From a virus: a DNA stretch of 43,521 nucleotides. The notes under the pieces are model-generated. The model did not search any database. It saw only the letters and a program-made list of their open reading frames with translations, and had not been told where the DNA came from. The position numbers were made by a program, and so were the translations under genes. The stretch spans positions 1-43,521 of the IMG/VR virus record IMGVR_UViG_3300045988_124583. The stretch is one strand, 5' to 3'. This document shows positions 23,004-40,846 of the stretch, piece after piece. Position 1 is the stretch's first letter; every line of letters starts with the position of its first letter.

Positions 23004-23018
23004 CGCTTTTTCCTCCTT

Positions 23019-23397: not shown

Positions 23398-24294
23398 TCA
23401 CCCCATTACAATAACGTTCACGCTGATGCTGATCGAGGGCTTGATTCCGTTCTGTGCTTCGTACACAATAAATCCGTCGCCCTGTCCGATCAGGCGCACC
23501 CAACAGCGAGCGGCTTCGCTTTCCATTTCCTTGATGGGAACAAAGGAAGAGAACACGTGGGTTTTCGCGGTATCCGACGTCACACCGGGGAAGGTGACTT
23601 TGTAATAGTATTTGCCGGGGGTGCTCGTACCGTCCCAACCGCTTGCGGAGAGGGTAATAGTCTTTGCACCGATGATGCTGCCACCACCCGTGCCACCCGT
23701 ACCGCCGCCACTCGTACCACCGCCAAACTCGCCGCTGTCCACACGGCTCATAAATTCCTCGTAATAGGACTGTCGCGCTTGTTCCGCAACAGCTCTGCTG
23801 TTCTCTGCGTCAACTCTTCCCGATTCTGCGTTGATTCTTGCGAGCTCGGCAGACTGCCTCGAAGCTTCTGCATCGATCATTGCGTCAATCGCGGAGCGGT
23901 TTTCGTCCGTGATGTTCAGACTGTCGTCGTTCACGACCCTTGCGCTCACGACCATAGTAAACCAAGCCGTGGAAACAACGCTTCCCGAAACGTGGCCGTA
24001 CAGCGTAAGCTCGCAGTCATGTATGCCCTCCACCACGGCGGTGTTTTCGTTCTGCATAAAATCATAGACGATTGTCGAATCGCTTTCGATAGGGCAGAAC
24101 GCCTGCAAATGAGTGCCCGTCGGTCTATGTATAGTCAGCATAGCAAGGCTGCCGTCGGGAATCTTGTACGGTACGCCACCGTCGGAAAGGTTTATAAGGA
24201 ATACTTTTCCCGTGTCGCCCACGGTAACAGGTATAGCAATCTGAGAATGCTGGACCTGCATATCAAGTGTAAATCTGTGTTTAGAATAAATCAT
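23398..24294 (-). CDS. Tail fibre / baseplate-upper-protein (BppU N-terminal)-like protein
   Basis: I place the start at ATG 24294 (GGGAGGA SD). The layout is an N-terminal beta-rich domain, a central coiled-coil-like AEASRQSAELARINAESGRVDAENSRAVAEQARQ, a Gly-rich linker, and a C-terminal domain. Confidence 0.5.
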   Translation of the reverse strand: MIYSKHRFTLDMQVQHSQIAIPVTVGDTGKVFLINLSDGGVPYKIPDGSLAMLTIHRPTGTHLQAFCPIESDSTIVYDFMQNENTAVVEGIHDCELTLYGHVSGSVVSTAWFTMVVSARVVNDDSLNITDENRSAIDAMIDAEASRQSAELARINAESGRVDAENSRAVAEQARQSYYEEFMSRVDSGEFGGGTSGGGTGGTGGGSIIGAKTITLSASGWDGTSTPGKYYYKVTFPGVTSDTAKTHVFSSFVPIKEMESEAARCWVRLIGQGDGFIVYEAQNGIKPSISISVNVIVMG

Positions 24295-24330
24295 TGCTTC
24301 CGTCCTCCCTTGGGTCATAAAAAGTATAAC

Positions 24331-24362
24331 ACAAAAAGGGGCAGGTTCTAAACCTACCCCCC
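24331..24362 (-). terminator. Intrinsic terminator after the giant gene
   Basis: Minus-strand RNA forms GGGGUAGGUU-UAG-AACCUGCCCC followed by UUUUUGUGUU. TGTTATACT (extended -10-like, 24323-24331 complement) follows it. Confidence 0.75.
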
Positions 24363-24373
24363 ATTGTAATTAT

Positions 24374-27300
24374 TTAGTGCCAAGGTGCATCGCTGATCGT
24401 GCTTTTCGCATAATCACATACGTAATACAAAGCGTCTTTTTGCTTCTTAGAAAGGTCAAGAGAATCGATATACTCAAGCACCTTTTCCTTTGCAGAAACA
24501 ATGACCTTGCCGCGTTCGTCCTTGTCAGACTTTGCGCTGCCCTTGAATTTCCATACGTCGTGGGCAATGTCAACGTCAATGCCCTTCGGCTCGCAATACT
24601 CGTTGTAAGCCGTTACGAACGAATAAGACACGCTTTCTCCGTCAAGGCTCGGGTGATCCTTGATAAAAGAATGCACGCTGACCTTCTCGGTCGCTTCCTC
24701 CTTGGTCATACCGCCGTAGCGCATATACATTTCGATAGCGCGGCTGGCCGTAATGTTGCCCGCAATAACCTCGTCGCCAATATCGTTGTACTCAATACCG
24801 GTCACGACGTAGGAGCTCCATTTGTTGACCGCTTTCGTGATATCCTCGCTGCTCTTGTCGGTGTACTTGGTAAGCATATCCGTTGCCTGCTGCTTGGAGA
24901 TCTCGCCGCCTCTGTACCACTCGCCAATCTTGCTCGTGATCTGCTCGGTCACTTGCTTTTCGGTATAGCCGTGGGATACAAGCTCGTTCATGGCTTCGTC
25001 AATGCTCGCACCGTTTCTGACTGCATCGTATACCTTGTCATAGCGGGAATATCCTTCGCCCGCTTCCCAACCCTGCATGGTGAAGTACGCCTCGTCCTCG
25101 TTGTCAACAAGCCCTTGTGCAAGCAGCTCCGCGATTGCTTCGTCAAACGTCAGATAGCCGTCCGCATACGCATACTTGATCTCGTTATAGTCGCCGGGAT
25201 CGTAGGATTTCACCTTAAGGCTCGGTGCCATTGCTCCGATGGTATTGTTCCAAATAGCAATAACCTCTCGCGTTGCCGCAGCCATAGGAAGCCCGACAAT
25301 GCCGGAAGCCGCCTGAAACAGCTTATAAATGCCGCCGTACCACGTGTAGTTGGTGTCCTCGCCCGCGATCTTCTGATAAATGATCTGCGTACCGTTGACG
25401 AGGCTATCCCACCATTGCATATATACGGACTGCGGAGGATTGCCGTAGGTGTCAACGCCGATAATGGAAAGCAGCTCTTTTGCAAGGTCGTAGAAGTCGG
25501 CCATGATCGGAAGCTTATTGATCGGCATGAGCTCGTCAATCGTGTTGCCGCCGAATGCTTCAAGCCATTTTTCAATGAACGTTTCGTATTCATCGTCGTC
25601 ACGCCAAGCGTCAGCAACAGCCTGAACCGCCGCCAACATCACGGCTGTCAAGCCGTATACGTACAGGGTGCGACTAATCATGTGCTTGTTCTTTTCCCAT
25701 GCCTGCTGCTTGCTCATACCGCGCTTCATGTCAGCGTTGTACTTATCAACAGCGTCAATCAGCATACTCGCGGTTGTCGTAGGCTCGCTCATAAACGAAC
25801 CGGTAAGACGCGCCACAACGCCCTTGCTACGCAAATACTGATTCTTGGTCAGCACGCTGTCAACGACCTGCGTCTTGTAGATCACGTCCTCAAAGAGCTT
25901 TGTAACCGCCTCGTAGAAGCCTGCATCACCGGGACGAAGCTTCTGCTTCTTGATCACTTCCTCTTTGCTTGCGCTCCACATAGCCGCCCAAGTAAGTGTG
26001 TCTGCCTGTTCTGCGCCCCACATACCCCATTCACCAACAGTTTGCTTCCAATCGGTGTTGTGCTTGATCGTCTCTGTCAGTCCTCGGGAAATGTTCACGT
26101 CATAGAAACCAAGAGATTTCCACGCGGCAATACCGCTGTGCTTCTGCATTTCCTCAATATTCTGCTTGATCGCTGCGGGCTTTAACTTCATGCCTCTCAT
26201 GATAGATCCGTAGTCTATCAAAAGAGCTGCACGAGAGATCGCCAAAGGCTGCTGCACGATCACGCGGAAATTGAATGCGACCTGTGCCATATTGTAGCGA
26301 CGGAGTGCGTTCATGCCAAACGTGTCTGTAGGAACGCCCTGCGCCTCTGTGCCGTTAAAGGCTTTGAGAATGCCCAGCACAAAATCCTCTGCATAGCCAC
26401 GTTTACCCGCGCCCGGTCGTGTTTCCTCGGTTACGCCATACACTCTTGCCATCTGCTCACGAACGCTGTCCTTCAAGTATCTGTTGCCCTCGCCGTCCTC
26501 GGTTTTCTGCTGATAGTTGAACCACTTGATCGCATCAAGAACGGGGAGAGCCATAGCGTTATACTGCGCCATACTCGCCATGTGATTTGCAAATACGTCG
26601 AAAATGCTGTAAACGATAATACGGTTATTTGCTTTTTCGTTACGGGACTTTGTAAAGCTCATATTGAGAAGTGCGTACAAGCTCGCCGCGCTCGGGTGTT
26701 CGTCTGCCGTTGCCTGCAAGTGTCTGCCGTCGGAGTTGATCGGGAAGTAGTGCTCGTTGGTAAACAGTTCCTCGCCAAAGCGTCTGACCGAAACCTCGTT
26801 GCCCCATGCGCCGCCTTGCTCTTGCATAAACTTCTGCATAGCGTCGGCAACCTCTTTCTGTCTATCAGTCAATGCGTTTACAATGATGGCTACGTCGCCC
26901 TCGTTCAGCGCGTGACCGTTATCGGAGATCTTCTTGCCGTTTGCTGCGGTATAGGTTGCTACGCGCATACCCTCGCCAAGCATGTGTCGCAAAGAGTCGG
27001 GCTGCTTGGAAAGCTCGTAAAGGGACATCATATCGGAAACGCGCATCTTAACTATGCCAGAGCTGATCCTGATATCCTTGGTTTCCTTTTCCCAAGCGTT
27101 GACCTCTTTCGTCGAATAAGTCTTTTCCGCAAACTCAACGATCTTTTGCGTATTGAAAGCAAGCCGTGCTTGACCGCGACGCAAGCCGTCGTAGATAGCC
27201 ACGCCACCTCTGCCGAAACGCTCAAAGGCGTATGCCGGGCGAATCTGCTGCCAAAATACAAAGTCGGTAGCTGCGTTCGATTTGCCGTTGTCGCTTCTCA

Positions 27301-30300
27301 ACTGAGAAAGCTCAAAGATCGTGTTGTCGCCTGCCTCGTAAACGTGCTGATACATAGCGTTTGCATGGAATTTGTTGATCTGCGTGATGTACGCTTTGAG
27401 AGTGCGTACAACACCGGAAAGCTGCTTCAGTTCCTCGCTCGTCATTCTGTTAATGACAAACTCACCGCTGTTTTGCTTGACGAGTACGTTCACCGCGTCA
27501 ATGAAATTCTGCAAGTCTGTCATAAAGCTCGGAGGGAGATCGGTATAGCCGGAATACAAGCCGTCCACGGTGATTTGCTCCTTGAGCGCACCGTTCAGAC
27601 CGTTCAGCCTCTTCACCAATTCCGCATCAGCTTTAGTCGCCTCACCGCCTCGGAGCTGCTGCTTACTCATGAAGTCGATAGAGTTAAGGAAAGGAATAAC
27701 GGAATTTTTCAGCACGTCGGGAATATGCTTCACAACGTCCTTATTGTTGGGCTTCATGACCCACGAGATCAGCTCGTTCACGTCAGTTGCGATACGCTCG
27801 CGGTACTTCTTGATAGCAGCCGCGTTCCTTGTGCGGTCGCGGTAGCGTTTCAGAATCTCCGCGTCGTGCGATCTCTGCTCGGTTTCAACGACCTTGCGCG
27901 CCTTTTTCAGCAAGCTCTCAAGCACCTTTTTGTCCTCAAGAGAGAGAACGTCGGCTTTTGCTTTATTGATCTGATCGTCAAGAACGTGCATACGGTTCAA
28001 GGTCTGCTTTGCCGCCTCGCGGTCAACCTTTGCGCCAAACTGCTGCTCCTTGTAAAGTCTGCCTTGCTCTGCTCGGTCGTCCTGCAAGCCTTCAAGCCTT
28101 GAAAGGCGGCTTTGGAAGATCTGCAAAGCGTCGCGCTCTGCATCGGTAAGATTGGTTGCCATAAGCTCGACAGCAGCCATTGCCAAAACCTCGCGGTCGC
28201 CCAGCGTGGTAGTGCGCTGCTGATAACTGATATCCGCGTCGGCGGTAGGCTGCTTATTGGAAGTGAGCTTGACTTGCTCCGCTGCCTTGATGATAACCAC
28301 GTCGCCGATCTCTTGGTGTGCGCCCACTCTTGCGTTGCGTACGATCACGCCGTCGTAATCGGCGTTATTCAGTCCGTCAGCAATGCTCGGATAGAGATTG
28401 CCGCCCGCAAGCGTTTTTCGATTAGCGTTGATCTCGTAAGGCTTGGTCACGTTGGCATATACTGCGTAGGTGCGGTTATTCGCACGGTTAACGATCTCTC
28501 CGGACTCACCCACGGGAATTCTCGCCTTAAAGGTGAAATCTTCAAGAGATACGCCGTCCTCTTCAAGAAGTCTGTTGCTTGCCTCTCTCAAACCGTCAAT
28601 CAGTTCTTCCTTGGTATAGTCCTCGTCCCTTGCGGCGTTGTTGCTGTCATAAGCGTCCCACGCGCGGAGAACGTCAGATACGGTGAACCTTTCGGGATTT
28701 TCGAACAGTTCGCCAAGCGTAGCCTCTCTTGAATGCTCCCACTCATAGCGGCCGTAGGCTTTCTGAATGCGCTTTCTTTCAGCGGAGTACTGCACTTCTT
28801 CAAGGCGGTCGTATTCGTCCCAGTCGCGGTTTTCGTTTGCCGCTTTAAGTTGTTTGCTGATTTCCGCATCGGTCAAATAACCCTCGGCACCGGGATTGTC
28901 CTTCTTGAACCTTTCAAGATCCTCTGCGCTGTCAAACCTCATATCGTCGTTAAGATAGAAGTTGCCACCGGTCGCCGTCTGAATATCGTCGGTTTCGTTA
29001 GGATCAAACAGCTTATGCTGATAATTTCCGGCATAAGAGTCTGCGTCCTTTTGGCTTGTAGTAAACCAATTACCGCCAAGCTTGCCACGGCTCGGCTCAA
29101 AAACGGTAAATCCTGCGTTTGCAGTACCGTGATACAGTACGAGAAGGTTTCCGTTCTTATCTCTTGCCTTGGAATCCTTGAAATAATCCGATTGAGCTGC
29201 CGTCAGCGCGTTACCGCTTGCGTCTTGCTCGCCGATATACGCGCGGCTCTGCTCCTGTACTGTGTCCTCGTCCACGCTGTCAAGGGACTGTTCCTCTTTA
29301 GGATTCAATATCTCCATAACCTCGTTATACCTCGCTCTCTTTTGGTCAAGCTCTGTCTGCTTTGCAAAAGGTGCTGCAATCAGCTTTTCCTGCTCTGCAA
29401 TATCCGTTTGCAACTCTGCAAGGTTATGTTGCCACAATTTCACCTTTTCGTCAATACTTTCGACAACGCCGATCAGATGATTGATCATATAGGCATGGTT
29501 TCCGGGATACGTTTTGAACGGATAGCCTTGCTTACCCACAAGCAAGCCGCCGATACCCTCGCTCGTTCTGATCACGCGAAGTTCAAAGCCTGCAAAGCTT
29601 CCCACCTTGGTATATCCGTCGGGGTTTGCCTTTGCCGCCGCTTCTGCCATAAGAGCAACGCCTGCTTCCTTCTTGTCGGCATACTTCTTGTTGCCAACGG
29701 TAATGGAGAATTTGCCCTCCGAATAGGTGTCAACGGTTGCAAGCATATCACTTTCGCCGTTTGCAATCTGCTTTTCAAGCGAAGCGATCTGACCACTATC
29801 ACGCAACAAACGCTCCTTTGCGGAACGAACCGCAGAAACGTGCGCTCTGTAAAGGCTTTCGAGCTTCTTAATATCGGTGTCAAGCTGTACCTGCTCCATG
29901 ATCAGCGGGCTGCCCGACGCAAGTGCCTTAACCTCGGCAGCGGAGAGAGTAACCTCGCCCGTGTCCTCGGCATCGCGTCCTACGCTGTCGCCATTCATGA
30001 TCTGATTGATGAAATTCTGCTTTCTTTCGAGAATATCCCAAAGACGCGCATCAAAGCTGCCCTCGGTAACGTAGGTGTATTTGGAAACTTCATCGTTGAT
30101 GTTGCCTTGTCTGAATGCGCGGCCGTCTCTCTGTTCCACGTCGCCCGGTCTCCAAGGTGCATCAAGGTGATGGATAGCAACGATACGCTTCTGCGCGTTC
30201 ATACCTACACCCATTTTGCCGGTAGAGCCGATAAGCACTCTTACCTTGCCGTCGTTCACGTCTGCAAACAGTTTCTTCTTCTTTTGGTCGGTGTCCGCAT

Positions 30301-33300: not shown

Positions 33301-36300
33301 CTCTCTGCATAATGTAGCGGCGCACCGTGTTGTCCTTTGCGTTCATCGTGTAAGAGGACGTGATAAACATCACAATACCGCCCGGACGAACCTTGTCAAG
33401 CGACTTGGCAAAGAAGTAGTTGTGAATGGCACTCGTCACCTTTTTGGGGTATTTCTTATCCGTAATGGCGTAGTTACCGAAAGGAACGTTACTGATAATC
33501 ACGTCCATGTAATTATCGGGAATGTTGGCTTTCTCAAAGCCCTGAATGCGCACGTCAGCGTTCGGATAAAGGTATTTTGCTATCAAGCCCGTAATGCCGT
33601 CAAGCTCAACCATAGTCCAACTCTTGACCTTTGCGCTCATTTCTGTAGGCATAGCACCCACAAAGTTACCTACACCGGAGGAAGGTTCAAGCATACGGCC
33701 GCCGTTAAAGCCAAGCTTCGCAAGTCCGTCATACATAGCCTTGATCACGGATATATCGGTATAGTGAGCATTAAGAGTAGAGCCTCTTGCAGATGCGTAT
33801 TCCTCTTCGGTCAGCAGCTCCTTCAGCTCGGTGAATTCCTTTGCCCATTCAGTTTTTCTCTGATCGAAAGCGTTTGCAAGACCGCCCCAACCAACGTACT
33901 TGGAAAGGATCTGCTGCTCTGCCTCGGTCGCATATCTGTTCTCGGCTTCAAGCTGCTTTACAAGCTTGATCGCCTCGATATTCGCCTTATACCTTGCCTT
34001 TTCACCGTTCGGCAGGGAAAGGCTATCCCCGATTACAAAGTTACGCCCCTTGGGCTGCTCGGTGGATTGCTCCGCGATCTGCTCGGTGACTTCCTCGTGA
34101 AGCTTTTCAGCCTCGGGAGTTAGCTCATCATTTCGTCGTAGATCTCCGCTCTGACGATCTCCATCGCCTGATCTACCGCCAGTCCCTGTTCCGTTATCAG
34201 CATCAGCGCCATTTCGTCCAGCCTCTTGTCCTCGCTCGACAGCGTCTCCCACAGAGTCCCCTCGCGGTGCATTTCCTTGTACATCTTCGGCTTGAACTTC
34301 ATCCAGTACTCGTGAATCTCCCTGCCGATCGGCGTCAGACTGCTGTACTGCGCCTCGGTTATCAACATTTTCGACATTCGGTTTTACCTCCTGTTTGGAT
34401 TGCTTTTTATTTGAAAAACTCTTTAATTTGGACGGTTTTGTGTTTGTAACCTCAGTTACGGCTTTCATCGGAAGCAAAAAGCCTACGACGTTGCCCTCGG
34501 CATCAACTGCTTTGAGAATTTTGTAATTCTTCATATAGTCGCCGACGTAAAGCAGATTTCCGTCAAGCCTTGACAAATACTTTTTGTCAAACACAGCCTT
34601 GGTTTTCCCATCAAGATCAAAAACATAAACCGTTTTGTCACCGAGAGTGCCTTCGAGCGGTGCATTGGTCAGCAAAATGTTAGCGTTTTCAAGTGCATCA
34701 GAAACCGGCTTTGGAAGGGCGTTTTCTTCCATGGTGCCCGAAAACTCCAACCTTGCCCAACCGACCATTTCTTCCGTTGCTCTCAAAGCAAAATTGCCAT
34801 CAGAGAGGAACAGCACGCCATTGCTATGCAAAACATATCTGCGTCCTGCGCGCTTCAACCAAGGAGAATACTTCTTCTTGTATTCCTTTTCGCTTTCCTC
34901 GATAGACTTGGTATCGGTCTTAACCTCTGCCACAGGACTTTCTACCGCATCTTTCGGTGCGTTTGCTGCCTTAAACTGCTCGTGAATATCGGACAGCTCC
35001 TTGATATAGGCGTCGAAGTCGTTATATGCATTTGGAATCCAATCGAGATCAAATTTCGAATCCGAAATCTGACCACTTACGGATATGCCGTAAGCAAACG
35101 CATTGGTTTCGTCATACACGTGCATAAATCGTCTGCGTTTGATAGCACGGTCTCGTTCACTATCGGTATCATCAATAGTAACGCCGTCGAGCGTATAGCC
35201 GACATGATCCAACATCATCTGTAAAAGTCTCATTGCTTCTTTGGAGGACATATTCATCATATCGGACGTGCGCTCTACAAACTCCAAATACGGCTTGAAG
35301 TCTTTGCGATGCATAGCGTGCGTTGCCTCGTGAGTGGGGATAGCATTCAGATCATCCGTGTCTATATCCTCGGAAATAAAGACTGCTCCGTCGGGCGTGG
35401 TGACCGCAGGCGATTCTGTTATTCTCCATTCGGCAGCCTTTACGATATGGCACTCTATGCCGTATTCATTCTGAAGAACGTCTTGCGCTTTGAACAAATC
35501 AGAGCCTTGTGCCGGATCGATGTAATTATTGGGGTCTAAAAGCCATTTGTTGTTGCTTAATCCTCTATTTGATCTTTGAACAGATTCTGCTTCTGAAATG
35601 CTTTCTCCCTTTTCTCCCACAGTTTCCGATACTCGGGATCTGTTGCCATCTGTTTCTCGTGTTCCTGCCGCTCTTTTCGCAGCATCTGAACGATCTCCTC
35701 TTGCGTCAATGGCTTCTTGTTCTGCATGGTTAATACCTCCGTCAGTATTGGTTTCAATATCCGTCGCCACCGTCATTTGATAATTCGTAACCGCTTCCAC
35801 GGCGACCTTGTCAAACAGCTTGACGATATTCTCGACGTATTTTACGCTCTCACCGATCTGCTCCTTGAGCGCGTTTGCCTCGCGGGAGCTGTTCGGGTCA
35901 ATGGAAGAGAAGTACGCTTTCAGATCTGCGACAAACTCCTTGAGCTTTTCAAGCAGCTTTTCAAATATGGTTTTGTGATTGTTCGCAAGCTCCTCTACGA
36001 AATTCGCATCGGGCAGAATGTCGGTCATAGCCTCGGCAACCACCTCGCGGCTTGCCTTGTCATAGGTCATGCCCTCATTCTGTGCCATTTTCGTATCAAT
36101 GAGGTCTTCTACGTTCTCTCCACGCTCGGTAAGGGTATCAAATACTACCTTTCTGAACTCATTATACCATATCGGATTCCATTTTTCAATAAAATGGGTA
36201 AATTCGTGCGAAAAAGTGCGCATCATGGTGTATTTTGCAAGATCATCTACGCTCTTGATATCCGCAATACCTGCGTTGATGTCAATGTAGATGGTGTCCT

Positions 36301-39262
36301 CGCTCCACTTGAACCTGCCTTGCGCTCCCTCAAACTGGCCGTCTGCATTTGCCTCGGACTTATACAGCACGATATCAATGCCGGTCGCTTCCGCATAGGT
36401 GGTAAGCAGCTTGTAAGCCTTGCCCTGCGTATCGTTGAAAGTCTTGCGCAGATCCTCGATCTTAACGCCCTCACCCCTTACCGTGCCTTTTCTGCGCCCG
36501 GTCTTGCCGTTTGCCTTGGCTTTGTTCGCCTCTGCCTGTGCTTTGGCGGTATTGGAGGAAGCGTCTGCGCCTGCCGCGTGTGCAAGCTCGCGCTGACTCT
36601 CGGTAAGATATGCGGTCGCGCCGCTGTTCATAGCGTAGGAGAGTGAAACGCCGCTCTTACCCATATTGTAAGCCGCAGAATATGCCGCGTCGTATTTTGC
36701 CACGTCCTGTCCCTCGGTATAGGTGGAGATCATAGCCCCTGCCTGCGCGCCGTATTTCTTCGCCGCGCTCTCCAAGGAAGCGGTGCTTTCGTCCGTGCGA
36801 ACGACCTCGTCAGATGCCTCAAATTTCGCTTTTGCGGGGCTTTCTTTTGCGGTGGCATTCTCGGTCACGCCCTGCACATTATCTGCGGCGGGCTGCGCCT
36901 CTGCTTCCGTGGTGGCTTTGTGACCGACATTTGTGTCGGGCGCAAGCTCTGCGGGCTTTGCCGCCTTTGCCACGCTTGCAGCCTCGGTAGGTGCGTTGGC
37001 GGTTGCCGTTTGCGGGCGTGCTTCCGCTTCAAGGCTTTGCAGCAGCCTGCCGTATTCCTCTGCATTGATTCTGTCCGTGCCGATTTCCTGCGCCCATGTG
37101 GAGAACGGAGATCCTGATTTAATGGTATCAGGATTCAGCTCCCAAGCCACTCTTTCAGCATATTTGCTGGTCTTCAACATCAGCTTATCAGCCGCACTGA
37201 GTGTCTCGCCTGCAACCTGCTTTGCAAGAGCCTTTGCAATGGTCTTTACGTTGCCTTTTTCCCCAAGCGCGGTAAGGCGGCTTTCTGCTGCGCTCTGAAT
37301 AGTAGCCACGTCATTCTCATACATAGCAGCCTCGTTCTGCTGTACGAGCCTGCCGATCTGACTGTTGGAAAGGGATTTGCCGCTTTCAACCCTCGACTGC
37401 ATTCTCTTAGCAAACCTGTTGTTCGGGTCGATCTCCAAGGCTTCTGTTGCAAGAGCCGCACCGAGTTGGCTTTTTGAAAGAGATTGGCTGCTGTCAACAT
37501 TGTTCTGCATTACCTTCGCGAGCTTACTGCTCGGGTCGATCTTCGTACCGTGATACTTTTGCATTTCCGCGCCCTGCATTGCGTTGCCGACGGTATTGAT
37601 CATAGCACCGCCGCTACCCATGATACCACCCGAAATAGCACCACCGAGCACATCAAGCCCGAACTCCTTTAATTTGTCGGCAGCATATTTACCGGCAGCG
37701 GCTCTTTCGTCAAGACCATACTCCTGCATAATGATTTGGATTTCGCGCTTGATTTTGCTTTCGTCTCCGCTAAGTACAAGATCCACAAGATCAACCAAGG
37801 TGTTTCCTACGTTGCTGAGACCTTCTTCAAGACCCTCTGCAAGCAGGTTTTCGAGAATGTATTTTCCTGCGCTGCCTTTAAGAGCCTTAATGTTAAACAA
37901 AGCGTCAATGCCGATTTTCTCGGTTGCCACCTCAATAGCACCTGCGGCAGTTCCGAGCAAAAAGGCTTGATTGTCCGAAAGTCCCAAATCCTTTGTGGCA
38001 ACAACGGTATCGGCTGCCGCACCTGTGCCCATAATGGCAAGGGATACCGCTTGATTGCCGCCGGTTATGGCAGTCGTGAAAAGGAAGTCACCCATGCTCA
38101 TACCGGTTTGGTAGGCAAAGCTGCCAACGCCACCCCAATTTGCTTCTACCGTCTCGGAAACCTCATTGCGGATCGCGCTGTTCATATGCACAAACTTGTT
38201 ATATCCCTCGTTCTGATCGATGCTGCCGTCCTCGGCGTAGTCTGCGAGCTGTCCGATGTAGGAAATACCCTTAAGCGGACTTGTGACAACGCTGAACACA
38301 GAAGTACCAACGGGATCTTCTTTTGCGAGTTCAGCCCACTTTGTTTCTTCTGCTTTTCTCTGTCTGCGGTCAAGATCGTCTGTGATAAGATCGATATACT
38401 CGAATGCCGCGTCTCTTCCTTGCGTAGCGTAAAGGTAATTGAAGATCTTGATTTCATCATCTTCCATTTCCAAACGCTCACCATCGGTATACCCATACAG
38501 AGCAGCACCGGTTTGAATATTCTGCGCAGACTTCATATTTATTGCATCTTGGTTGCGGTTGATGTAGTCATAATCAATATCATCAAAACCGTCTTCGGTG
38601 TACGCTCCCGTAAACCAATTGCGCTTCTCGCCACCGACATAGGTAGATTTGTATTCGCTATTTTCCGCAAAGTCAGATGCCGTAGAAAGGAGGTCGTATC
38701 TATGAGTATTCAGCCATTCCTTTTCTTCGCCGTCATTGAGCTTGCCAAGCGCAGATACGATTTCCTCATAGCTCTTGCCGCTGTATTTGTTCTGATAGTC
38801 GTAATACCTTTTCGCGGTGTAATATTCGTCCTCGCTCGCCCATTGCGACCAATATTCAACGTCCTTGGTAGAGGCGTCCAAAACGCTCTCCTGCGCTTTC
38901 AGGTTGCCGTCAAGAGCCTTGAATACGGAGCTGACGTAATCATCGCCAAAGAAGTCCTTGTACTGCGTCAGCACGCTTTTAATGCTTTCCGCTTCCTTTT
39001 GGAAATTCTCTCTCTGTGTAGTAACGGTGTTCAGCCAATCGGACGCATCGGTTCTGAACTTGGTGTTGTTTGCGTTAAAGCGGTTCTGCGCGTTAGAGAT
39101 ATAGTGATTGTTATTTGTAAGCCACGTGTTCACGCGGTTGGAGATTTCCTTGCCGACTGTTTCTACGTTCTTATACAAATATCGGTTTTCAACGCCGTTA
39201 TAGAGAGTATTCGATTTTTCTTCTTCCTCTCTTTTCTTCTTGTATCTATCTTCTACGCCCAT
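24374..39262 (-). CDS. Giant polyvalent protein (4,962 aa): hydrophobic Gly-rich N-region, two zincin motifs, N6-adenine MTase, SNF2 helicase, ART-like domain, TM/repeat C-region; candidate virion cargo/ejection protein
   Basis: Uninterrupted ORF. GGAGG lies 7 nt upstream of ATG 39262 and a terminator follows the stop. The motifs were read directly and are listed in the sub-features. Confidence 0.85.
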   Translation of the reverse strand: MGVEDRYKKKREEEEKSNTLYNGVENRYLYKNVETVGKEISNRVNTWLTNNNHYISNAQNRFNANNTKFRTDASDWLNTVTTQRENFQKEAESIKSVLTQYKDFFGDDYVSSVFKALDGNLKAQESVLDASTKDVEYWSQWASEDEYYTAKRYYDYQNKYSGKSYEEIVSALGKLNDGEEKEWLNTHRYDLLSTASDFAENSEYKSTYVGGEKRNWFTGAYTEDGFDDIDYDYINRNQDAINMKSAQNIQTGAALYGYTDGERLEMEDDEIKIFNYLYATQGRDAAFEYIDLITDDLDRRQRKAEETKWAELAKEDPVGTSVFSVVTSPLKGISYIGQLADYAEDGSIDQNEGYNKFVHMNSAIRNEVSETVEANWGGVGSFAYQTGMSMGDFLFTTAITGGNQAVSLAIMGTGAAADTVVATKDLGLSDNQAFLLGTAAGAIEVATEKIGIDALFNIKALKGSAGKYILENLLAEGLEEGLSNVGNTLVDLVDLVLSGDESKIKREIQIIMQEYGLDERAAAGKYAADKLKEFGLDVLGGAISGGIMGSGGAMINTVGNAMQGAEMQKYHGTKIDPSSKLAKVMQNNVDSSQSLSKSQLGAALATEALEIDPNNRFAKRMQSRVESGKSLSNSQIGRLVQQNEAAMYENDVATIQSAAESRLTALGEKGNVKTIAKALAKQVAGETLSAADKLMLKTSKYAERVAWELNPDTIKSGSPFSTWAQEIGTDRINAEEYGRLLQSLEAEARPQTATANAPTEAASVAKAAKPAELAPDTNVGHKATTEAEAQPAADNVQGVTENATAKESPAKAKFEASDEVVRTDESTASLESAAKKYGAQAGAMISTYTEGQDVAKYDAAYSAAYNMGKSGVSLSYAMNSGATAYLTESQRELAHAAGADASSNTAKAQAEANKAKANGKTGRRKGTVRGEGVKIEDLRKTFNDTQGKAYKLLTTYAEATGIDIVLYKSEANADGQFEGAQGRFKWSEDTIYIDINAGIADIKSVDDLAKYTMMRTFSHEFTHFIEKWNPIWYNEFRKVVFDTLTERGENVEDLIDTKMAQNEGMTYDKASREVVAEAMTDILPDANFVEELANNHKTIFEKLLEKLKEFVADLKAYFSSIDPNSSREANALKEQIGESVKYVENIVKLFDKVAVEAVTNYQMTVATDIETNTDGGINHAEQEAIDARGDRSDAAKRAAGTRETDGNRSRVSETVGEKGESISEAESVQRSNRGLSNNKWLLDPNNYIDPAQGSDLFKAQDVLQNEYGIECHIVKAAEWRITESPAVTTPDGAVFISEDIDTDDLNAIPTHEATHAMHRKDFKPYLEFVERTSDMMNMSSKEAMRLLQMMLDHVGYTLDGVTIDDTDSERDRAIKRRRFMHVYDETNAFAYGISVSGQISDSKFDLDWIPNAYNDFDAYIKELSDIHEQFKAANAPKDAVESPVAEVKTDTKSIEESEKEYKKKYSPWLKRAGRRYVLHSNGVLFLSDGNFALRATEEMVGWARLEFSGTMEENALPKPVSDALENANILLTNAPLEGTLGDKTVYVFDLDGKTKAVFDKKYLSRLDGNLLYVGDYMKNYKILKAVDAEGNVVGFLLPMKAVTEVTNTKPSKLKSFSNKKQSKQEVKPNVENVDNRGAVQQSDADRQGDSRVLDEVQAEDVQGNAPRGDSVGDAVERGQEAGRNGADADNGTGTGGRSGDGDRQSGDLRRNDELTPEAEKLHEEVTEQIAEQSTEQPKGRNFVIGDSLSLPNGEKARYKANIEAIKLVKQLEAENRYATEAEQQILSKYVGWGGLANAFDQRKTEWAKEFTELKELLTEEEYASARGSTLNAHYTDISVIKAMYDGLAKLGFNGGRMLEPSSGVGNFVGAMPTEMSAKVKSWTMVELDGITGLIAKYLYPNADVRIQGFEKANIPDNYMDVIISNVPFGNYAITDKKYPKKVTSAIHNYFFAKSLDKVRPGGIVMFITSSYTMNAKDNTVRRYIMQRADLLGAIRLPDSAFKGNAGTEVVTDILVLKKRAENTAYAGEDFLEAPWTRLEKESYNGAYINTYFENHPEMVLGTPTMDGGMYRSGSLTYKALEGKGSLADQIREAFSHINGKMEYPATLSREKTNFAVERANKKTKENGLVVKDGKVYQNKGGDLVEVDKAKGAAERISAMLEIRDLARNLMNYQQQGLNETEIKKARTALNKAYDAFVKKYGFINSQANRNAFIEDPDRYSLFALENWNPETKKATKADIFSKNTIAPNRTVTSAKDVSEGLIVSVNQTGGVDTALIAKLTGIAEADVTRELIDSRKAFKNRNGDLEAAEVYLSGNVRAKLRDAEALVPIDGDYAHNVEALKAVMPEDVGYQDIFVNPGTPWIPNSVYSDFAAYMLGSRNTDWRQAVDITRNADTGNFTVELKDRYLKTNAANTQKWGTSRRTFLELFDAMLNSKSVVIKDKLDDGSFVINKDATAAANEKIENIQKEFQEWLWRDEARRTELATLYNEVFNSVVTPKYNGENLTVNGANALKPLRPHQRNAVQRVISSGGNTLLAHKVGAGKTYEMAAAAMKLKELGLVKKPMFAVPKSLVAQWGNEFIDFFPTAKLLVAEASDFTASNRKVFMNRIANGEYDAVIVSYEQFEKLPMSDDFTRQLYQEQIDSVIAAIEDAKADKGDKALSVKDLEKKRKSLQTKIDKLTDKAKDEGNIDFEQLGVDSLFVDEAHNFKNLFYTTSMTNVAGLGNKDGSKRAFDLYTKVRYLQQLNGGRGIVFATATPVMNSMSEMYIMQKYLQPDLLNQLGLSTFDAWAKQFGEVVNGVEIKPSGQGYRVKQSFSRFKNMSELQLLFRNFADVLTDIPGLKIPKMKGGKVNVVVCEPGQFQQDFMKELEQRADNIKNIDPSVDNMLKITSDGRKISYTQRMIDPSLPYEEGCKIFRCADNVLEEYKNSKAIKGTQIIFLDMATPKGKSDNTTETDDLEMDVESAQLYDDLKARLRQGGIPAQEIAFIHDADTDQKKKKLFADVNDGKVRVLIGSTGKMGVGMNAQKRIVAIHHLDAPWRPGDVEQRDGRAFRQGNINDEVSKYTYVTEGSFDARLWDILERKQNFINQIMNGDSVGRDAEDTGEVTLSAAEVKALASGSPLIMEQVQLDTDIKKLESLYRAHVSAVRSAKERLLRDSGQIASLEKQIANGESDMLATVDTYSEGKFSITVGNKKYADKKEAGVALMAEAAAKANPDGYTKVGSFAGFELRVIRTSEGIGGLLVGKQGYPFKTYPGNHAYMINHLIGVVESIDEKVKLWQHNLAELQTDIAEQEKLIAAPFAKQTELDQKRARYNEVMEILNPKEEQSLDSVDEDTVQEQSRAYIGEQDASGNALTAAQSDYFKDSKARDKNGNLLVLYHGTANAGFTVFEPSRGKLGGNWFTTSQKDADSYAGNYQHKLFDPNETDDIQTATGGNFYLNDDMRFDSAEDLERFKKDNPGAEGYLTDAEISKQLKAANENRDWDEYDRLEEVQYSAERKRIQKAYGRYEWEHSREATLGELFENPERFTVSDVLRAWDAYDSNNAARDEDYTKEELIDGLREASNRLLEEDGVSLEDFTFKARIPVGESGEIVNRANNRTYAVYANVTKPYEINANRKTLAGGNLYPSIADGLNNADYDGVIVRNARVGAHQEIGDVVIIKAAEQVKLTSNKQPTADADISYQQRTTTLGDREVLAMAAVELMATNLTDAERDALQIFQSRLSRLEGLQDDRAEQGRLYKEQQFGAKVDREAAKQTLNRMHVLDDQINKAKADVLSLEDKKVLESLLKKARKVVETEQRSHDAEILKRYRDRTRNAAAIKKYRERIATDVNELISWVMKPNNKDVVKHIPDVLKNSVIPFLNSIDFMSKQQLRGGEATKADAELVKRLNGLNGALKEQITVDGLYSGYTDLPPSFMTDLQNFIDAVNVLVKQNSGEFVINRMTSEELKQLSGVVRTLKAYITQINKFHANAMYQHVYEAGDNTIFELSQLRSDNGKSNAATDFVFWQQIRPAYAFERFGRGGVAIYDGLRRGQARLAFNTQKIVEFAEKTYSTKEVNAWEKETKDIRISSGIVKMRVSDMMSLYELSKQPDSLRHMLGEGMRVATYTAANGKKISDNGHALNEGDVAIIVNALTDRQKEVADAMQKFMQEQGGAWGNEVSVRRFGEELFTNEHYFPINSDGRHLQATADEHPSAASLYALLNMSFTKSRNEKANNRIIVYSIFDVFANHMASMAQYNAMALPVLDAIKWFNYQQKTEDGEGNRYLKDSVREQMARVYGVTEETRPGAGKRGYAEDFVLGILKAFNGTEAQGVPTDTFGMNALRRYNMAQVAFNFRVIVQQPLAISRAALLIDYGSIMRGMKLKPAAIKQNIEEMQKHSGIAAWKSLGFYDVNISRGLTETIKHNTDWKQTVGEWGMWGAEQADTLTWAAMWSASKEEVIKKQKLRPGDAGFYEAVTKLFEDVIYKTQVVDSVLTKNQYLRSKGVVARLTGSFMSEPTTTASMLIDAVDKYNADMKRGMSKQQAWEKNKHMISRTLYVYGLTAVMLAAVQAVADAWRDDDEYETFIEKWLEAFGGNTIDELMPINKLPIMADFYDLAKELLSIIGVDTYGNPPQSVYMQWWDSLVNGTQIIYQKIAGEDTNYTWYGGIYKLFQAASGIVGLPMAAATREVIAIWNNTIGAMAPSLKVKSYDPGDYNEIKYAYADGYLTFDEAIAELLAQGLVDNEDEAYFTMQGWEAGEGYSRYDKVYDAVRNGASIDEAMNELVSHGYTEKQVTEQITSKIGEWYRGGEISKQQATDMLTKYTDKSSEDITKAVNKWSSYVVTGIEYNDIGDEVIAGNITASRAIEMYMRYGGMTKEEATEKVSVHSFIKDHPSLDGESVSYSFVTAYNEYCEPKGIDVDIAHDVWKFKGSAKSDKDERGKVIVSAKEKVLEYIDSLDLSKKQKDALYYVCDYAKSTISDAPWH
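24670..25165 (-). other. Giant protein C-terminal tandem helical repeats (about 4 x ~35 aa)
   Basis: Repeat units: GYLTFDEAIAELLAQGLVDNEDEAYFTMQGW, NGASIDEAMNELVSHGYTEKQVTEQITSKIGEWY, GEISKQQATDMLTKYTDKSSEDITKAVNKWS, GNITASRAIEMYMRYGGMTKEEATEKVSVHSF. Confidence 0.6.
28255..29190 (-). other. Giant protein: ART-like (polyvalent-protein ADP-ribosyltransferase-like) domain with a large insert
   Basis: NLLVLYHGTANAGFTVFEPS...GGNWFTTSQKDADSYAG (YHGT at 29123-29134), then after ~170 aa RTYAVYANVTKPYEI...DYDGVIVRNARVGAHQEIGDVVIIKAAEQVKL. Assignment is from memory of the family pattern. Confidence 0.45.
29990..31723 (-). other. Giant protein: SNF2-family helicase domain
   Basis: LRPHQ (31723), GAGKT (31634-31648), DEAH (31151-31162), ATATPVMNS, GSTGKMGVGMNAQ, QRDGRAFRQGN (30101-30133). 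Confidence 0.85.
33200..34050 (-). other. Giant protein: N6-adenine DNA methyltransferase domain
   Basis: Motif I MLEPSSGVGNF (33662-33694) and motif IV NVPFG (33476-33490). It is preceded by the ...ILSKYVGWGGL... lead-in that I associate with methylase-helicase fusion proteins. Confidence 0.8.
34120..34377 (-). CDS. Embedded +1-frame ORF E2 (85 aa), TnpV-like small protein candidate
   Basis: AGGAGG lies 9 nt upstream of ATG 34377. The protein sequence looks globular (MSKMLITEAQYSSLTPIGREIHEYWMKFKPKMYKEMHREGTLWETL...). It lies wholly inside the giant ORF, where the main frame is low-complexity. Confidence 0.55.
   Translation of the reverse strand: MSKMLITEAQYSSLTPIGREIHEYWMKFKPKMYKEMHREGTLWETLSSEDKRLDEMALMLITEQGLAVDQAMEIVRAEIYDEMMS
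35318..35332 (-). other. Giant protein: second HExxH motif (THEATHAMH)
   Basis: In-frame CAC GAG GCA ACG CAC (aa 1311-1315). Confidence 0.6.
35557..35727 (-). CDS. Embedded +1-frame ORF E1 (56 aa)
   Basis: GGAGG lies 8 nt upstream of ATG 35727. Translation is MQNKKPLTQEEIVQMLRKERQEHEKQMATDPEYRKLWEKREKAFQKQNLFKDQIED. It lies inside the giant ORF, where the main frame is low-complexity. Confidence 0.5.
   Translation of the reverse strand: MQNKKPLTQEEIVQMLRKERQEHEKQMATDPEYRKLWEKREKAFQKQNLFKDQIED
35800..36490 (-). other. Giant protein: zincin-like metallopeptidase domain (polyvalent-protein MPTase-like)
   Basis: ...DTIYIDINAGIADIKSVDDLAKYTMMRTFSHEFTHFIEKW... with HEFTH at 36194-36208 (aa 1019-1023). 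Confidence 0.6.
37595..38135 (-). other. Giant protein: Gly/Ala-rich hydrophobic (membrane-active-like) segments
   Basis: WGGVGSFAYQTGMSMGDFLFTTAITGGNQAVSLAIMGTGAAADTVVA...LLGTAAGAIEVA and VLGGAISGGIMGSGGAMINTVGNAMQG. Confidence 0.55.
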
Positions 39263-39278
39263 AATTCAACCTCCGTGA

Positions 39279-40679: not shown

Positions 40680-40846
40680 TTGTTTTGTTCCTCCGTTTGT
40701 TTTGTGTTGCTTGAAGCCTTCTTTTCCAAGTCGTTGAGAGCATATTGAATATCGCCCACAAGCTGAAACAGATAGCTTTTCATTTGCGCAAGCTGCTCTT
40801 TTTCGGTAGCCCCCGTGATGTTGGGCGGTCTTAATTTATAACTCAT
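40676..40846 (-). CDS. Small protein (56 aa, below the track cutoff)
   Basis: ATG 40846 overlaps the upstream stop (TAATG) and its stop overlaps the next ATG (ATGA). Translation is MSYKLRPPNITGATEKEQLAQMKSYLFQLVGDIQYALNDLEKKASSNTKQTEEQNK. Confidence 0.5.
   Translation of the reverse strand: MSYKLRPPNITGATEKEQLAQMKSYLFQLVGDIQYALNDLEKKASSNTKQTEEQNK

Follow-up and report, generated by a model that had tools for sequence, protein, structure and literature searches.

A giant DarB-like polyvalent protein encoded in the late operon of a temperate phage, probably of gut and rumen Clostridia

A single reading frame of 14,889 nt on the minus strand (24374..39262), identified by ORF listing and translation, occupies about a third of the window, the whole 43,521-bp stretch of viral DNA analysed here; opening with ATG and free of internal stops, it encodes a protein of 4,962 aa, 553 kDa and pI 5.2, in agreement with the first-pass annotation of this DNA. 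The Shine-Dalgarno sequence GGAGG (39270..39274, minus strand) stands, as earlier noted, 7 nt ahead of the ATG, the gap between the frame and the stop codon of the upstream gene is only 16 nt, and the strong terminator reported beyond its own stop was recovered as an intrinsic hairpin (24326..24362, minus strand) with a 12-bp stem, a 3-nt loop and a T-run (dG −24.6 kcal/mol, z = −5.0 against shuffles). Because the window ends carry a 119-bp direct repeat, the genome is a 43,402-bp circle, ∼34.3% of which is filled by the giant ORF (34.2% of the window), with a GC content of 50.3% against 49.2% for the remaining genome. Chance cannot account for 4,962 stop-free codons at 50% GC; the exact product has already been deposited in IMG/ENA as a single gene call, its module order is repeated in assemblies made independently from different samples and hosts, and relatives often show stretches of 4,000 to >4,677 aa without a stop. 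Two apparent splits of the ORF in relatives resolve into a run of N in one case and, in the other, a lone in-frame TAG past which homology runs on; recoding of TAG in the latter relative (L002) was rejected, as its only TAG falls at a Tyr codon position, making mutation or sequencing error the simpler explanation.

The late operon surrounding the giant gene runs in the order TerL, portal, Prp protease, scaffold, MCP, g124, g591, g466, giant gene, g306, variable cassette, holin and endolysin. Three conserved upstream late genes on the minus strand comprise g124 (42618-42992; phrog_12105), g591 (40846-42621; phrog_511, ‘internal virion protein’) and g466 (39279-40679), homologues of which carry PG_binding_1 in relatives. 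Downstream, g306 (23398..24318, minus strand) joins a conserved N-terminal region of ∼190 aa, located directly 3′ of the giant gene in 27 related loci, to a variable C-terminus; its residues 9-131 share 36% identity with the N-terminus of a protein in one relative (L001) that matches Pfam BppU_N, and g306 is probably a fibre or receptor-binding anchor. The proposed location of the giant gene between tail-proximal (putatively adaptor) and fibre-like genes is thereby upheld, within a late virion operon and with a fibre-anchor-like gene on its downstream side, and synteny around it is maintained in GTDB loci. The five small genes downstream show no conservation among relatives, and searches of the genome and its relatives for conserved tail-tube, sheath, chaperone and tape-measure genes found none. 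The MCP is closest to podophage MCPs (28-29% identity), which together with a similar replication block forms the only link to cultured podophages, the tail genes giving no match to those of Page and API480. A serine integrase, a repressor-like gene and the occurrence of relatives within bacterial contigs of 120-187 kb bear out the temperate lifestyle suggested at first reading, and the lineage is taken to consist of temperate, probably short-tailed phages that infect Clostridia (Oscillospiraceae, Faecousia) of the gut and rumen.

The protein begins with an N-terminal module (aa 1-929; 36476..39262, minus strand) that is assigned to no Pfam family and is shared by 40 homologous clusters at 26-57% identity, after which differing cargo domains follow; it includes a Gly/Ala-rich, mildly hydrophobic stretch at aa 376-556 (37595-38137), the Gly-rich segments scoring 1.2-1.4 on the Kyte-Doolittle scale, and is present beside g591 homologues in related viral contigs. 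Two zincin-like domains on the minus strand follow, Z1 (aa 930-1175; 35738..36475; HEFTH at 1019-1023 and Glu1073) and Z2 (aa 1235-1445; 34928..35560; HEATH at 1311-1315 and Glu1385), for a motif, HExxH, of which 0.05 copies would be expected by chance in the giant protein from its H and E frequencies. Residues H1019, E1020 and H1023 of Z1 are kept in 180 of 181 homologues and E1073 in 188 of 194; in Z2, H1311 and E1312 are kept in all 19 homologues, with H1315 and E1385 in 18 of the 19. The stretch aa 900-1640 is matched by 1,140 representative proteins and, among the best matches listed, it is mostly the Z1 part that is matched, in proteins 2,400-4,744 aa long and usually at their residues 750-1250. 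AF2 models place in Z1 a helix, three strands, the HExxH helix and the Glu helix (pLDDT 50-87), and in Z2 a secondary-structure order that fits a zincin (pLDDT >90). Neither domain matched a Pfam peptidase even at E ≤ 1, Foldseek searches of the PDB with both models returned nothing at E ≤ 0.001 (best E = 0.13-0.25), a Z1 profile found zero matches among PDB sequences, and Tox-MPTase2 was matched by one of 19 homologues (E = 0.003). Hence the two zincins of the first-pass annotation stand as nearly invariant HExxH...E residues in a predicted zincin topology and escape recovery by profile or fold searches, and it is these conserved residues and models that suggest a zincin-like nature for Z1 and Z2. 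A domain matching no family (X1, aa 1465-1605; 34448..34870, minus strand) comes next, followed by a charged low-complexity linker up to ∼aa 1735.

A DarB-like core (aa 1617-3415; 29018..34414, minus strand), supported by phrog_10089, Pfam and BLASTP to P1 DarB, comprises in order an LPD36-like helical region, an N6-adenine methyltransferase (MTase), an inter-domain region, an SNF2 helicase and a post-helicase region, the GWGG motif of the LPD36-like region being recognised 5′ of the MTase by inspection only. The MTase carries motif I (EPSSGVGNF, aa 1859-1867) and motif IV (NVPFG, aa 1925-1929), and the helicase carries Walker A (GAGKT, aa 2539-2543), DEAH (aa 2701-2704) and motif VI (QRDGRAFRQGN, aa 3044-3054); all motif coordinates given earlier proved correct except for the end of EPSSGVGNF, which lies at 33688 rather than 33694. 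The phrog_10089 profile (‘DarB-like antirestriction’) matches the core with E = 0, and BLASTP aligns it with P1 DarB in three collinear segments (E = 3e-23, 1e-30 and 2e-16; 29%, 26% and 34% identity) spanning the MTase and both helicase lobes, with LEPSAGTGVF and NVPFG at the aligned positions of P1 DarB. SNF2-rel_dom, ResIII and Helicase_C all exceed their Pfam cut-offs, which secures the SNF2 helicase assignment, and the N6-adenine MTase is confirmed by homology to P1 DarB and by phrog_10089, with Eco57I borderline (25.2 bits against a cut-off of 25.3); the resemblance to P1 DarB pointed out in the first-pass annotation is likewise substantiated by the homology and collinearity of the MTase and SNF2 pair. 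Identity of the core to giant proteins of cultured podophages is 36-43%, and 2,179 plasmid records match it.

The YHGT-type ART-like domain noted from the sequence is an ART-PolyVal ADP-ribosyltransferase domain (aa 3368-3680; 28223..29161, minus strand), PF18760 matching with 41-49 bits against a cut-off of 31.2. It holds an insert of ∼170 aa, and its block F-x-D-S-K...YHGT...FTVF is kept among homologues, including the His of YHGT (aa 3377-3380); no conserved position could be fixed across the aligned homologues for the third, acidic catalytic residue, and the predicted ART activity is uncertain for this reason. Segment-wise profile searches, the check that had been proposed, therefore recovered MTase, SNF2 helicase and ART and missed both zincins; in Pfam searches of 14 segments at E ≤ 1, noise alone was found beyond the MTase, helicase and ART regions. 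Prp-protease cleavage motifs (LQLFA), sought within the giant protein as a processing route, numbered none.

Beyond the ART lies a mostly α-helical C-module of ∼1,000 aa (aa 3700-4690; 25193..28165, minus strand; phrog_22978), with 91 homologues at 25-97% identity and 52 invariant columns. A lone TM-like helix (aa 4528-4550) precedes its acidic patch DAWRDDDEY, with D4551, R4554 and D4555-D4557 as invariant residues; TM helices, in the plural, had been described for this region, but their signal is weak, this one segment having a Kyte-Doolittle mean of 1.64 and no other reaching that value. The AF2 model of the C-module (pLDDT 73, pTM 0.64) found zero matches in the PDB by fold with Foldseek, as did the sequence profile, and 71 matches in BFVD (best E = 1e-39, TM 0.64), all of them C-terminal pieces of giant phage polyvalent proteins, many from uncultured phages; the fold recurs in viral proteins from gut, freshwater and elsewhere at TM 0.4-0.64. 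In GTDB genomes the module occurs at 75 loci, mostly in Clostridia/Oscillospiraceae genome bins. The protein closes with degenerate helical repeats (aa 4691-4962; 24377..25192, minus strand) in units of ∼48 aa, the best pair scoring 45 against 24 ± 5 for shuffles (maximum 38), so that the tandem repeats claimed for this region rise above the shuffle maximum and are degenerate; the last residues are a conserved ...APWH. Megablast of the giant gene against GenBank phages gave zero matches, and tblastn against the same phages found no named or cultured phage with either the first 1,700 or the last 1,548 residues, each query hitting a single unannotated human-faecal ‘Bacteriophage sp.’ fragment, two in all. 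Proteins of 1,631-1,679 aa at the same position in Page and API480 were considered as C-terminal homologues and rejected, BLASTP and the C-module HMM both returning empty.

Distribution was assessed in 41 viral contigs picked by g591 homology only and extending at least 5 kb downstream, a sample with no bias for or against the giant gene because g591 homology alone decided the selection. In 40 of the 41, a long ORF running off the locus end occupies the giant-gene position, 29 being counted by the long ORF alone and 11 also showing N-module and/or Z1 homology. Of 41 complete ORFs >2,500 aa carrying the C-module, 37 contain Z1, 7 the MTase/SNF2 pair, 3 Z2 and 2 ART, and relatives with the same N- or C-module instead bear PBECR3/5, MuF_C, LPD1/3/23, a Sno-type helicase, RadC or ADPrib_exo_Tox, with ORF lengths of about 2,150 to >4,677 aa among close relatives. 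Variable cargo on a constant chassis is thus the pattern observed across relatives, a role of the N- and C-modules as chassis being a guess from their conservation. These modules show no detectable similarity to solved ejection proteins or to the termini of the Bcep22-type and VvAW1 proteins.

Polyvalent proteins of phages and conjugative elements were defined by Iyer et al. 2017 (PMC5512222), and the class, as portrayed in the available text of that study, resembles the window protein in its disparate enzymatic domains, an MTase-helicase dyad with an LPD36-like region, and ART-PolyVal; the same text places phage polyvalent proteins among late genes and records the proposal that interspersed zincins process the protein. 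The appeal made earlier to this concept is vindicated by an MTase, an SNF2 helicase and an ADP-ribosyltransferase (ART-PolyVal) in one chain and in a late-gene context, whereas no Pfam family, PolyVal and LPD included, covers the N-module, the C-module or either zincin-like domain, and no description of N-module, Z1 and C-module as a constant chassis was found in the available text of Iyer et al. 2017 (PMC5512222). P1 DarB (2,255 aa), which sits in the virion head and guards phage DNA in cis from type I restriction according to that text (PMC5512222) and whose packaging requires DarA, Hdf, DdrA and Ulx (as cited in the available part of PMC9144972), shares the collinear MTase and SNF2-type helicase, the NVPFG motif IV and a position adjoining virion genes; the window protein is 2.2× longer and adds the N- and C-modules, two zincin-like domains and the ART, and P1 is a myovirus of Proteobacteria whereas the present lineage is probably one of gut and rumen Clostridia. 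Bcep22-like phages (Lessievirus; Bcep22 gp75, JC1 gp69) are temperate and encode a giant ORF with the DarB pair before the lysis genes, as here, JC1 gp69 being a 4,515-aa protein that accounts for 22% of the genome, lies last in the morphogenesis module and yielded 51 unique peptides by MS from CsCl-purified virions (PMC9144972). Homology to this type by phrog_10089 reaches no further than the core, which aligns with profile positions 1458-3313 of 4647; neither terminal third is related to its counterpart in the window protein, and the phages, with genomes of ∼61 kb, infect Proteobacteria. Vibrio phage VvAW1, a podovirus by EM (PMC3558961), encodes the DarB-like gp01 (3,640 aa, 28% of a 38,682-bp genome) directly after its DNA-ejection genes, with 39% identity to the window protein over the MTase-helicase core; it differs in a P22-like head, a Gram-negative host and the lack of a detected ART in gp01, to which the C-module profile gave zero match, and neither PLxRFG nor any other NCBIfam domain was found in gp01 or the C-module.

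The combination and size, called unusual in the first-pass annotation, were overstated in view of the 3,640-aa protein in the 38.7-kb VvAW1 genome and the ∼4,500-aa proteins of JC1 and Bcep22 at 22%, and the supposed rarity of so large an ORF does not survive the abundance in metagenomes of relatives of 2,800 to >4,677 aa. N4 virion RNA polymerase, a protein of ∼3,500 aa that is injected, provides a further instance of a giant protein inside the capsid of a podovirus, the analogy being one of principle only: searches of Pfam and PHROGs found no sequence or domain homology and no RNA polymerase domain in the window protein. A zincin domain is attributed to the N4 enzyme in the available text of Iyer et al. 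(PMC5512222). A protein of 553 kDa must fit a capsid together with 43 kb of DNA and pass a narrow channel, for which N4 virion RNA polymerase and DarB are precedents. Among gut Clostridia, prophages of Clostridium clostridioforme LM41 contain LPD3-like ORFs of ∼8 kb (∼20% of genome) that have been read as polyvalent, roughly half the size of the window ORF and with no DarB pair reported, a comparison made by description only (PMC11318856). No relevant paper came from a literature search for direct evidence that virions of Firmicutes phages contain polyvalent proteins.

The window protein is accordingly an unusually large and heavily loaded DarB-like polyvalent protein rather than a new type of system, and the favoured reading, held with moderate confidence, is that it serves as a core virion or ejection protein of the temperate Clostridia phage lineage and bears counter-defence enzymes; gene position and analogy to the systems above suggest that it may be packaged in the virion and injected. 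On this proposal, the N-module, the first zincin-like peptidase and the helical C-module of ∼1,000 aa with its terminal repeats would form a chassis between whose parts the enzymes vary, the cargo of the window phage being unusually heavy with a second zincin-like domain, a DarB-type fusion of methylase and SNF2 translocase, and ART-PolyVal. The protein would be synthesised late, built into the head or tail channel via the chassis, and exit the virion together with the DNA on infection, whereupon the zincin or zincins could cleave the polypeptide into working pieces, the methylase-translocase would track the incoming DNA and shield it in cis from restriction, as shown for P1 DarB, and the ART might modify a host target. 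Ejection, proteolytic processing, anti-restriction and ADP-ribosylation are all predicted activities of the giant protein.

On non-restricting hosts P1 can grow without DarB, and the giant protein could by comparison be purely accessory, a counter-defence protein packaged like P1 DarB, dispensable for assembly and DNA delivery, with the N- and C-modules acting as packaging signals only; its cargo indeed varies freely among relatives, as arms-race genes would. Such a role is nevertheless unlikely, as the long ORF stands at the same place in nearly all contigs chosen without reference to it, a chassis of ∼2,000 aa with so many invariant columns goes far beyond the needs of a packaging tag, and the module conserves no further candidate for an ejection protein. 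Also to be weighed is a cytoplasmic, non-packaged enzyme or a prophage defence system protecting the lysogen, with MTase and helicase after the manner of DISARM, BREX or Zorya. The partial matches to DrmD, BrxH, ZorD and a PLD anti-phage helicase that suggest it cover helicase motifs only, at 16-63 bits against NCBIfam curated cut-offs of 600-1,100, and PADLOC matches are equally partial; partner genes of DISARM, BREX or Zorya do not adjoin the gene, which lies inside a late structural operon close behind its upstream neighbour, and ART-PolyVal and the cargo types of relatives are those of injected effectors, making this alternative very unlikely even though hosts may capture polyvalent proteins, as the available text of Iyer et al. 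notes (PMC5512222).

A position ahead of a BppU_N-like gene, an arrangement shared with Firmicutes siphophages, along with Gly-rich hydrophobic segments and long helices, would also suit the tape-measure protein of a long-tailed phage that had acquired enzymatic domains. Against this, no tape-measure family is matched in Pfam or PHROGs, tail-tube, chaperone, Dit and Tal genes were not detected and the small downstream genes are not conserved, the MCP points to podophages, and 4,962 aa at an estimated ∼0.15 nm per residue would imply a tail of roughly 740 nm; moreover, the ORF varies in length among relatives by gain and loss of globular enzymes, a misfit with a length ruler, and the idea is highly improbable. 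Scarcely credible, lastly, is an artefact of assembly or gene calling, in which the ORF would be chimeric or would join several genes through sequencing errors: the contig is metagenome-derived and relatives in protein databases are pieces of <2,210 aa, yet the module order recurs across independent assemblies, the splits in relatives come down to a run of N and a single TAG, amino-acid conservation covers every module and the GC content is uniform.

Returning to the favoured reading of a core virion or ejection protein, a bolder and more doubtful extension is that N-module, Z1 and C-module may constitute a previously undescribed and widespread cargo-delivery chassis, serving as ejection or pilot protein in a large group of phages yet to be cultured. 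Were that so, any enzyme could be spliced in for injection and freed by Z1, and the giant gene would be essential rather than accessory, ejection machinery and counter-defence arsenal having merged in one polypeptide.

The finding extends the current polyvalent-protein concept and does not alter it. Giant DarB-like polyvalent proteins, studied so far in phages of Proteobacteria, are also core and very abundant in temperate phages of gut and rumen Clostridia, where one such protein can occupy a third of the genome. The pattern of chassis and cargo amounts to a natural catalogue of effectors delivered at the first moment of infection, encompassing methylase-translocases, ADP-ribosyltransferases, PBECR nucleases, RadC and Sno-type helicases, while the N- and C-modules represent two large conserved modules with neither a Pfam family nor a solved structure; should they form a packaging and ejection device, they could explain how proteins of half a megadalton are loaded and injected, and might serve protein delivery.

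The giant gene is a single 4,962-aa frame with an ATG start at 24374..39262 (-) in the ORF listing, and its translation contains no internal stop, in agreement with the uninterrupted minus-strand ORF described in the first-pass annotation. The expression signals proposed there are also present: a GGAGG 7 nt before the ATG (39274-39270), only 16 nt from the stop of the upstream gene, and a strong intrinsic terminator past the ORF stop, built of a 12-bp stem, a loop of 3 nt and a T-run (24362-24336; -24.6 kcal/mol, z = -5.0; 0/200 dinucleotide shuffles fold equally well). The motif coordinates listed were all correct, except for the end of EPSSGVGNF, at 33688. An exact 119-bp direct repeat at the window ends (1-119 and 43403-43521) indicates a circular assembly of 43,402 bp, of which the giant ORF occupies 34%. 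The predicted protein has a mass of 553 kDa and a pI of 5.2; IMG/ENA already holds an identical protein as one gene call (43,521-bp contig), named 'N12 class adenine-specific DNA methylase'. In two relatives the giant gene is split by gene callers, at a run of N in one and at a single in-frame TAG in the other (k141_848474, positions 9926-9928); this TAG aligns with window Tyr3179, homology carries on past it, and mutation or sequencing error is the probable cause. That the giant ORF itself is an artefact of assembly is contradicted by the recurrence of this architecture in independent assemblies. Plus-strand ORFs of 822, 696, 602, 516 and 506 aa within the giant gene (24377-39286) all occupy the codon-aligned antisense frame, and TTA, CTA or TCA make up only 22 of its 4,962 sense codons; these are therefore shadow ORFs, not genes.

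The late operon runs on the minus strand from TerL (5983-4547) through portal (4530-2554), Prp cysteine protease (2538-2215; PF04327), scaffold (2140-1097) and major capsid protein (MCP; 1128-1, then 43402-43352, spanning the junction) to an 82-aa gene (43284-43036), g124 (42992-42618), g591 (42621-40846; phrog_511 'internal virion protein'), g466 (40679-39279), the giant gene (39262-24374), the fibre-anchor-like g306 (24318-23398), five small genes (23393-20703), holin (20083-19820) and endolysin (19808-19140). The MCP gene is cut by the window ends and is absent from the linear ORF listing. The gene set is that of a temperate phage, with a repressor-like gene, a replication/recombination block and, on the plus strand, a large serine integrase at 17489-19042; the early region also encodes a 446-aa DNA methyltransferase (14496-15836, -) separate from the giant protein, giving the phage a second, stand-alone methylase. 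No tail-tube, sheath, chaperone or tape-measure genes were detected in the window. The nearest MCPs among cultured phages are those of the Bacillus podophage Page group and Paenibacillus podophage API480 (28-29% identity), and the replication/recombination block at 9362-13883 (-), encoding an SbcC-like protein of 645 aa, a metal-dependent hydrolase and a DnaD-like loader, matches the layout of Page genes 31, 33 and 37, so that a short-tailed virion is predicted as probable from these gene affinities. In both Page and API480 an unannotated protein of 1,631-1,679 aa ends the structural module, for which no sequence similarity to the giant protein was found.

The Prp gene (PF04327; 2215-2538) sits between the portal and scaffold genes, and both scaffold and capsid protein open with ...LNLQLFA, known in Firmicutes phages such as 80alpha as the motif cleaved by Prp; no motif of this type occurs in the giant protein. 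The five small genes (20703-23393, -) between g306 and the lysis genes have no homologue in 75 related GTDB loci and no PHROG or Pfam match, and form a hypervariable cassette, possibly of receptor-binding or moron genes.

The centre of the giant protein (aa 1617-3415) is assigned to phrog_10089, 'DarB-like antirestriction' (PHROGs, E = 0). Pfam recovers SNF2-rel_dom (aa 2466-2708), ResIII and Helicase_C above gathering score, with Eco57I methylase at 25.2 bits against a cut-off of 25.3, and BLASTP against P1 DarB aligns three collinear segments: the methyltransferase (MTase; 29%, E = 3e-23), helicase N-lobe (26%, E = 1e-30) and C-lobe (34%, E = 2e-16). The N6-adenine MTase and SNF2 helicase read from motifs alone in the first-pass annotation are confirmed, and the unusual motif IV NVPFG is common to the giant protein and P1 DarB. 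Directly N-terminal of the MTase lies a GWGG motif, by inspection compatible with GxG[GAS], described by Iyer et al. (PMC5512222) as the signature of the LPD36 domain that precedes such methylases. The core is 36-43% identical to giant proteins of cultured podophages (VvAW1, PEp14, Itty13, LASTA, PBC5, Atu_ph08, and Ralstonia and Burkholderia phages) and is matched in 2,179 plasmid records, a ubiquity that fits the account of polyvalent proteins in PMC5512222. The YHGT-type ADP-ribosyltransferase (ART)-like domain is recovered as ART-PolyVal (PF18760), which covers aa 3368-3508 and scores 41-49 bits (the cut-off is 31.2); it contains an insert of ~170 aa common to the nearest homologues, and its third catalytic residue, sought in an alignment of homologues, could not be fixed.

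Two further domains, Z1 (aa 930-1175) and Z2 (aa 1235-1445), had been proposed as zincins on the basis of HExxH motifs. No profile or fold search recovers either domain, an outcome that the proposal itself had counted against the assignment: Pfam returns nothing at E <= 1, a profile of Z1 homologues finds nothing in the PDB, and a Foldseek search of the PDB with the AF2-modelled segment aa 930-1480 yields a best E of only 0.13, while in member-wise Pfam scans 1/19 homologues matches Tox-MPTase2 (E = 0.003). The HExxH...E residues are nevertheless conserved. Among ~180 homologous Z1 domains, 180/181 retain H1019, E1020 and H1023, and 188/194 the downstream E1073; across 19 Z2 domains H1311 and E1312 are present in 19/19, and H1315 and E1385 in 18/19. 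The calculated expectation of HExxH in a protein of this length and composition (His 1.1%, Glu 7.9%) is ~0.05, compared with two observed. Both domains are modelled by AF2 as a helix, two or three strands and the HExxH helix, with the conserved Glu in a later helix (pLDDT above 90 for Z2, 50-87 for Z1), an order of elements equivalent to the zincin core as outlined in PMC5512222. On this evidence Z1 and Z2 are probably gluzincin-type peptidases of families not yet in Pfam.

The first 929 aa (N-module) and last ~1,260 aa of the protein have no match in Pfam or NCBIfam, yet both termini have relatives. The N-module recurs in 40 homologous clusters (26-57% identity), followed by varying domains, e.g. 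PBECR5, ART-PolyVal, MuF_C, LPD3 and LPD23, and the C-module (aa 3700-4690) in 91 homologues (25-97% identity), preceded by various domains. Re-scanning of seven proteins from the two match lists bore out PBECR3, PBECR5, MuF_C, LPD1, LPD3, LPD23, a Strawberry-notch-type helicase, RadC and ADPrib_exo_Tox; ART-PolyVal and C5 methylase (PF00145) in C-module relatives come from precomputed Pfam annotation only. An alignment of 43 C-module sequences has 52 invariant columns, including residues of an acidic patch, DAWRDDDEY, that directly follows the one convincing hydrophobic helix of the protein, TLYVYGLTAVMLAAVQAVA; helix and patch together span aa 4528-4559 (window 25598-25693, -). D4551, R4554 and D4555-D4557 of the patch do not vary among these 43 homologues (24-80% identical), and the C-module may have a functional site here. 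The TM helices of the first-pass annotation are weakly supported, since only the TM-like helix at aa 4528-4550 has a Kyte-Doolittle mean of 1.64 and the Gly-rich N-terminal stretch reaches 1.2-1.4; its tandem repeats are degenerate units of ~48 aa in the last 270 aa, with a score of 45 for the best pair (24 +/- 5 in shuffles). Modelled by AF2, aa 3700-4700 consist mostly of helices (pLDDT 73, pTM 0.64) and have no PDB counterpart by fold or by sequence profile. In BFVD, 71 predicted viral structures match the C-module at E <= 0.001 (best E = 1e-39, TM 0.64); those listed are all second or third pieces of long proteins encoded by uncultured phages from the gut and elsewhere, with names that refer to MuF_C, nuclease, PolyVal-ART or LPD domains.

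A search with aa 900-1640 identified 1,140 representatives (50% clusters) among 1.84 billion proteins; the matches listed fall mostly on the Z1 part, many in proteins of 2,400-4,744 aa with the domain at ~aa 750-1250, and among the best 150 none is longer than the giant protein. GTDB genomes, sampled at one per species, contain 75 loci with the C-module. Most of these come from gut and rumen bins assigned to Clostridia, Oscillospiraceae, Faecousia or Eubacteriales; many are on 40-47 kb contigs and some within contigs of 120-187 kb, and the stop-free stretches around the C-module range from ~2,150 to >4,677 aa. Six loci (L005, L031, L036, L053, L054, L065) come from bins labelled Bacteroidaceae, Treponema, Escherichia coli, Bacteroidales, Desulfovibrio or Thermoguttaceae, and are most likely wrongly binned phage contigs, not indications of true hosts. 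The order g124-g591-g466-giant-g306 is kept in GTDB loci; in the distant relatives L056-L061, g124 and g591 homologues lie ~3 kb downstream of the giant gene, not upstream, indicating rearrangement of gene order near it within the wider group. To avoid selection on the giant gene itself, 80 IMG/VR loci were taken by g591 homology only, and the 41 with at least 5 kb downstream were counted: in 40 a long ORF begins after 1-4 intervening genes and runs off the locus end, identified by length alone in 29 and also by N-module and/or Z1 homology in 11. Among 41 complete ORFs over 2,500 aa with the C-module, Z1 is present in 37, the MTase/SNF2 pair in seven, Z2 in three and ART in two, from which it follows that N-region, Z1 and C-module form a constant chassis for interchangeable enzymes. 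On this plan, the window encodes a maximally loaded version.

On the reading with the best support, the giant protein would be made late and borne in the virion, the chassis serving assembly and ejection and the cargo of enzymes acting at the start of infection. What the analysis shows directly is anatomy, homology, gene position and this comparative pattern, whereas the packaging, ejection, cleavage and enzymatic activities of this protein are inferred. Precedents exist in phages with related cores. P1 DarB is a head protein that acts in cis to shield the entering DNA against type I restriction, and it probably couples methylation to translocation in doing so; phage polyvalent proteins sit among late genes, with zincins proposed as their processors (PMC5512222 for both). 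The DarB-like gp69 of the temperate podovirus JC1 (4,515 aa; 22.1% of the genome) lies at the end of the morphogenesis module and yielded 51 unique peptides from CsCl-purified virions (PMC9144972), and in Vibrio podophage VvAW1 (38,682 bp) the DarB-like gp01 (3,640 aa; 28% of the genome) comes right after a DNA-ejection gene.

A purely accessory packaged protein is possible, but sits badly with near-universal presence and the strong conservation of a chassis of ~2,000 aa. A tape measure, for which the implied tail would be an estimated ~740 nm, is excluded for practical purposes by the lack of a TMP profile and of long-tail genes, and by length shifts that arise through gain and loss of globular enzymes. 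Partial helicase-motif matches of 16-63 bits would be the basis for a defence system of the lysogen, but are far below the NCBIfam curated cut-offs for the matched families (600-1,100 bits), and the operon context contradicts this role.

The giant protein is a member of the polyvalent-protein class with a bona fide DarB-type dyad, as the concept invoked in the first-pass annotation anticipated. A full-length relationship to the Bcep22 or VvAW1 proteins was rejected, only the core being matched; the termini of the window's protein are part of another chassis, as yet uncharacterised and widely distributed among uncultured phages. The view that this size and combination look unusual in so small a temperate genome was overstated: 34% lies at the upper end of a continuum (22%, 28%) that also takes in relatives with stop-free ORFs of up to >4,677 aa, some on 42-47-kb contigs, and differs from these in degree, not in kind. 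Modestly new are two zincin-like domains, a ~930-aa N-module and a ~1,000-aa C-module, all without a Pfam family match, with no significant structural match in the PDB for the C-module and Z1-Z2 region, and, equally modestly, the documentation of a constant-chassis, variable-cargo pattern in a large lineage of Clostridia phages.
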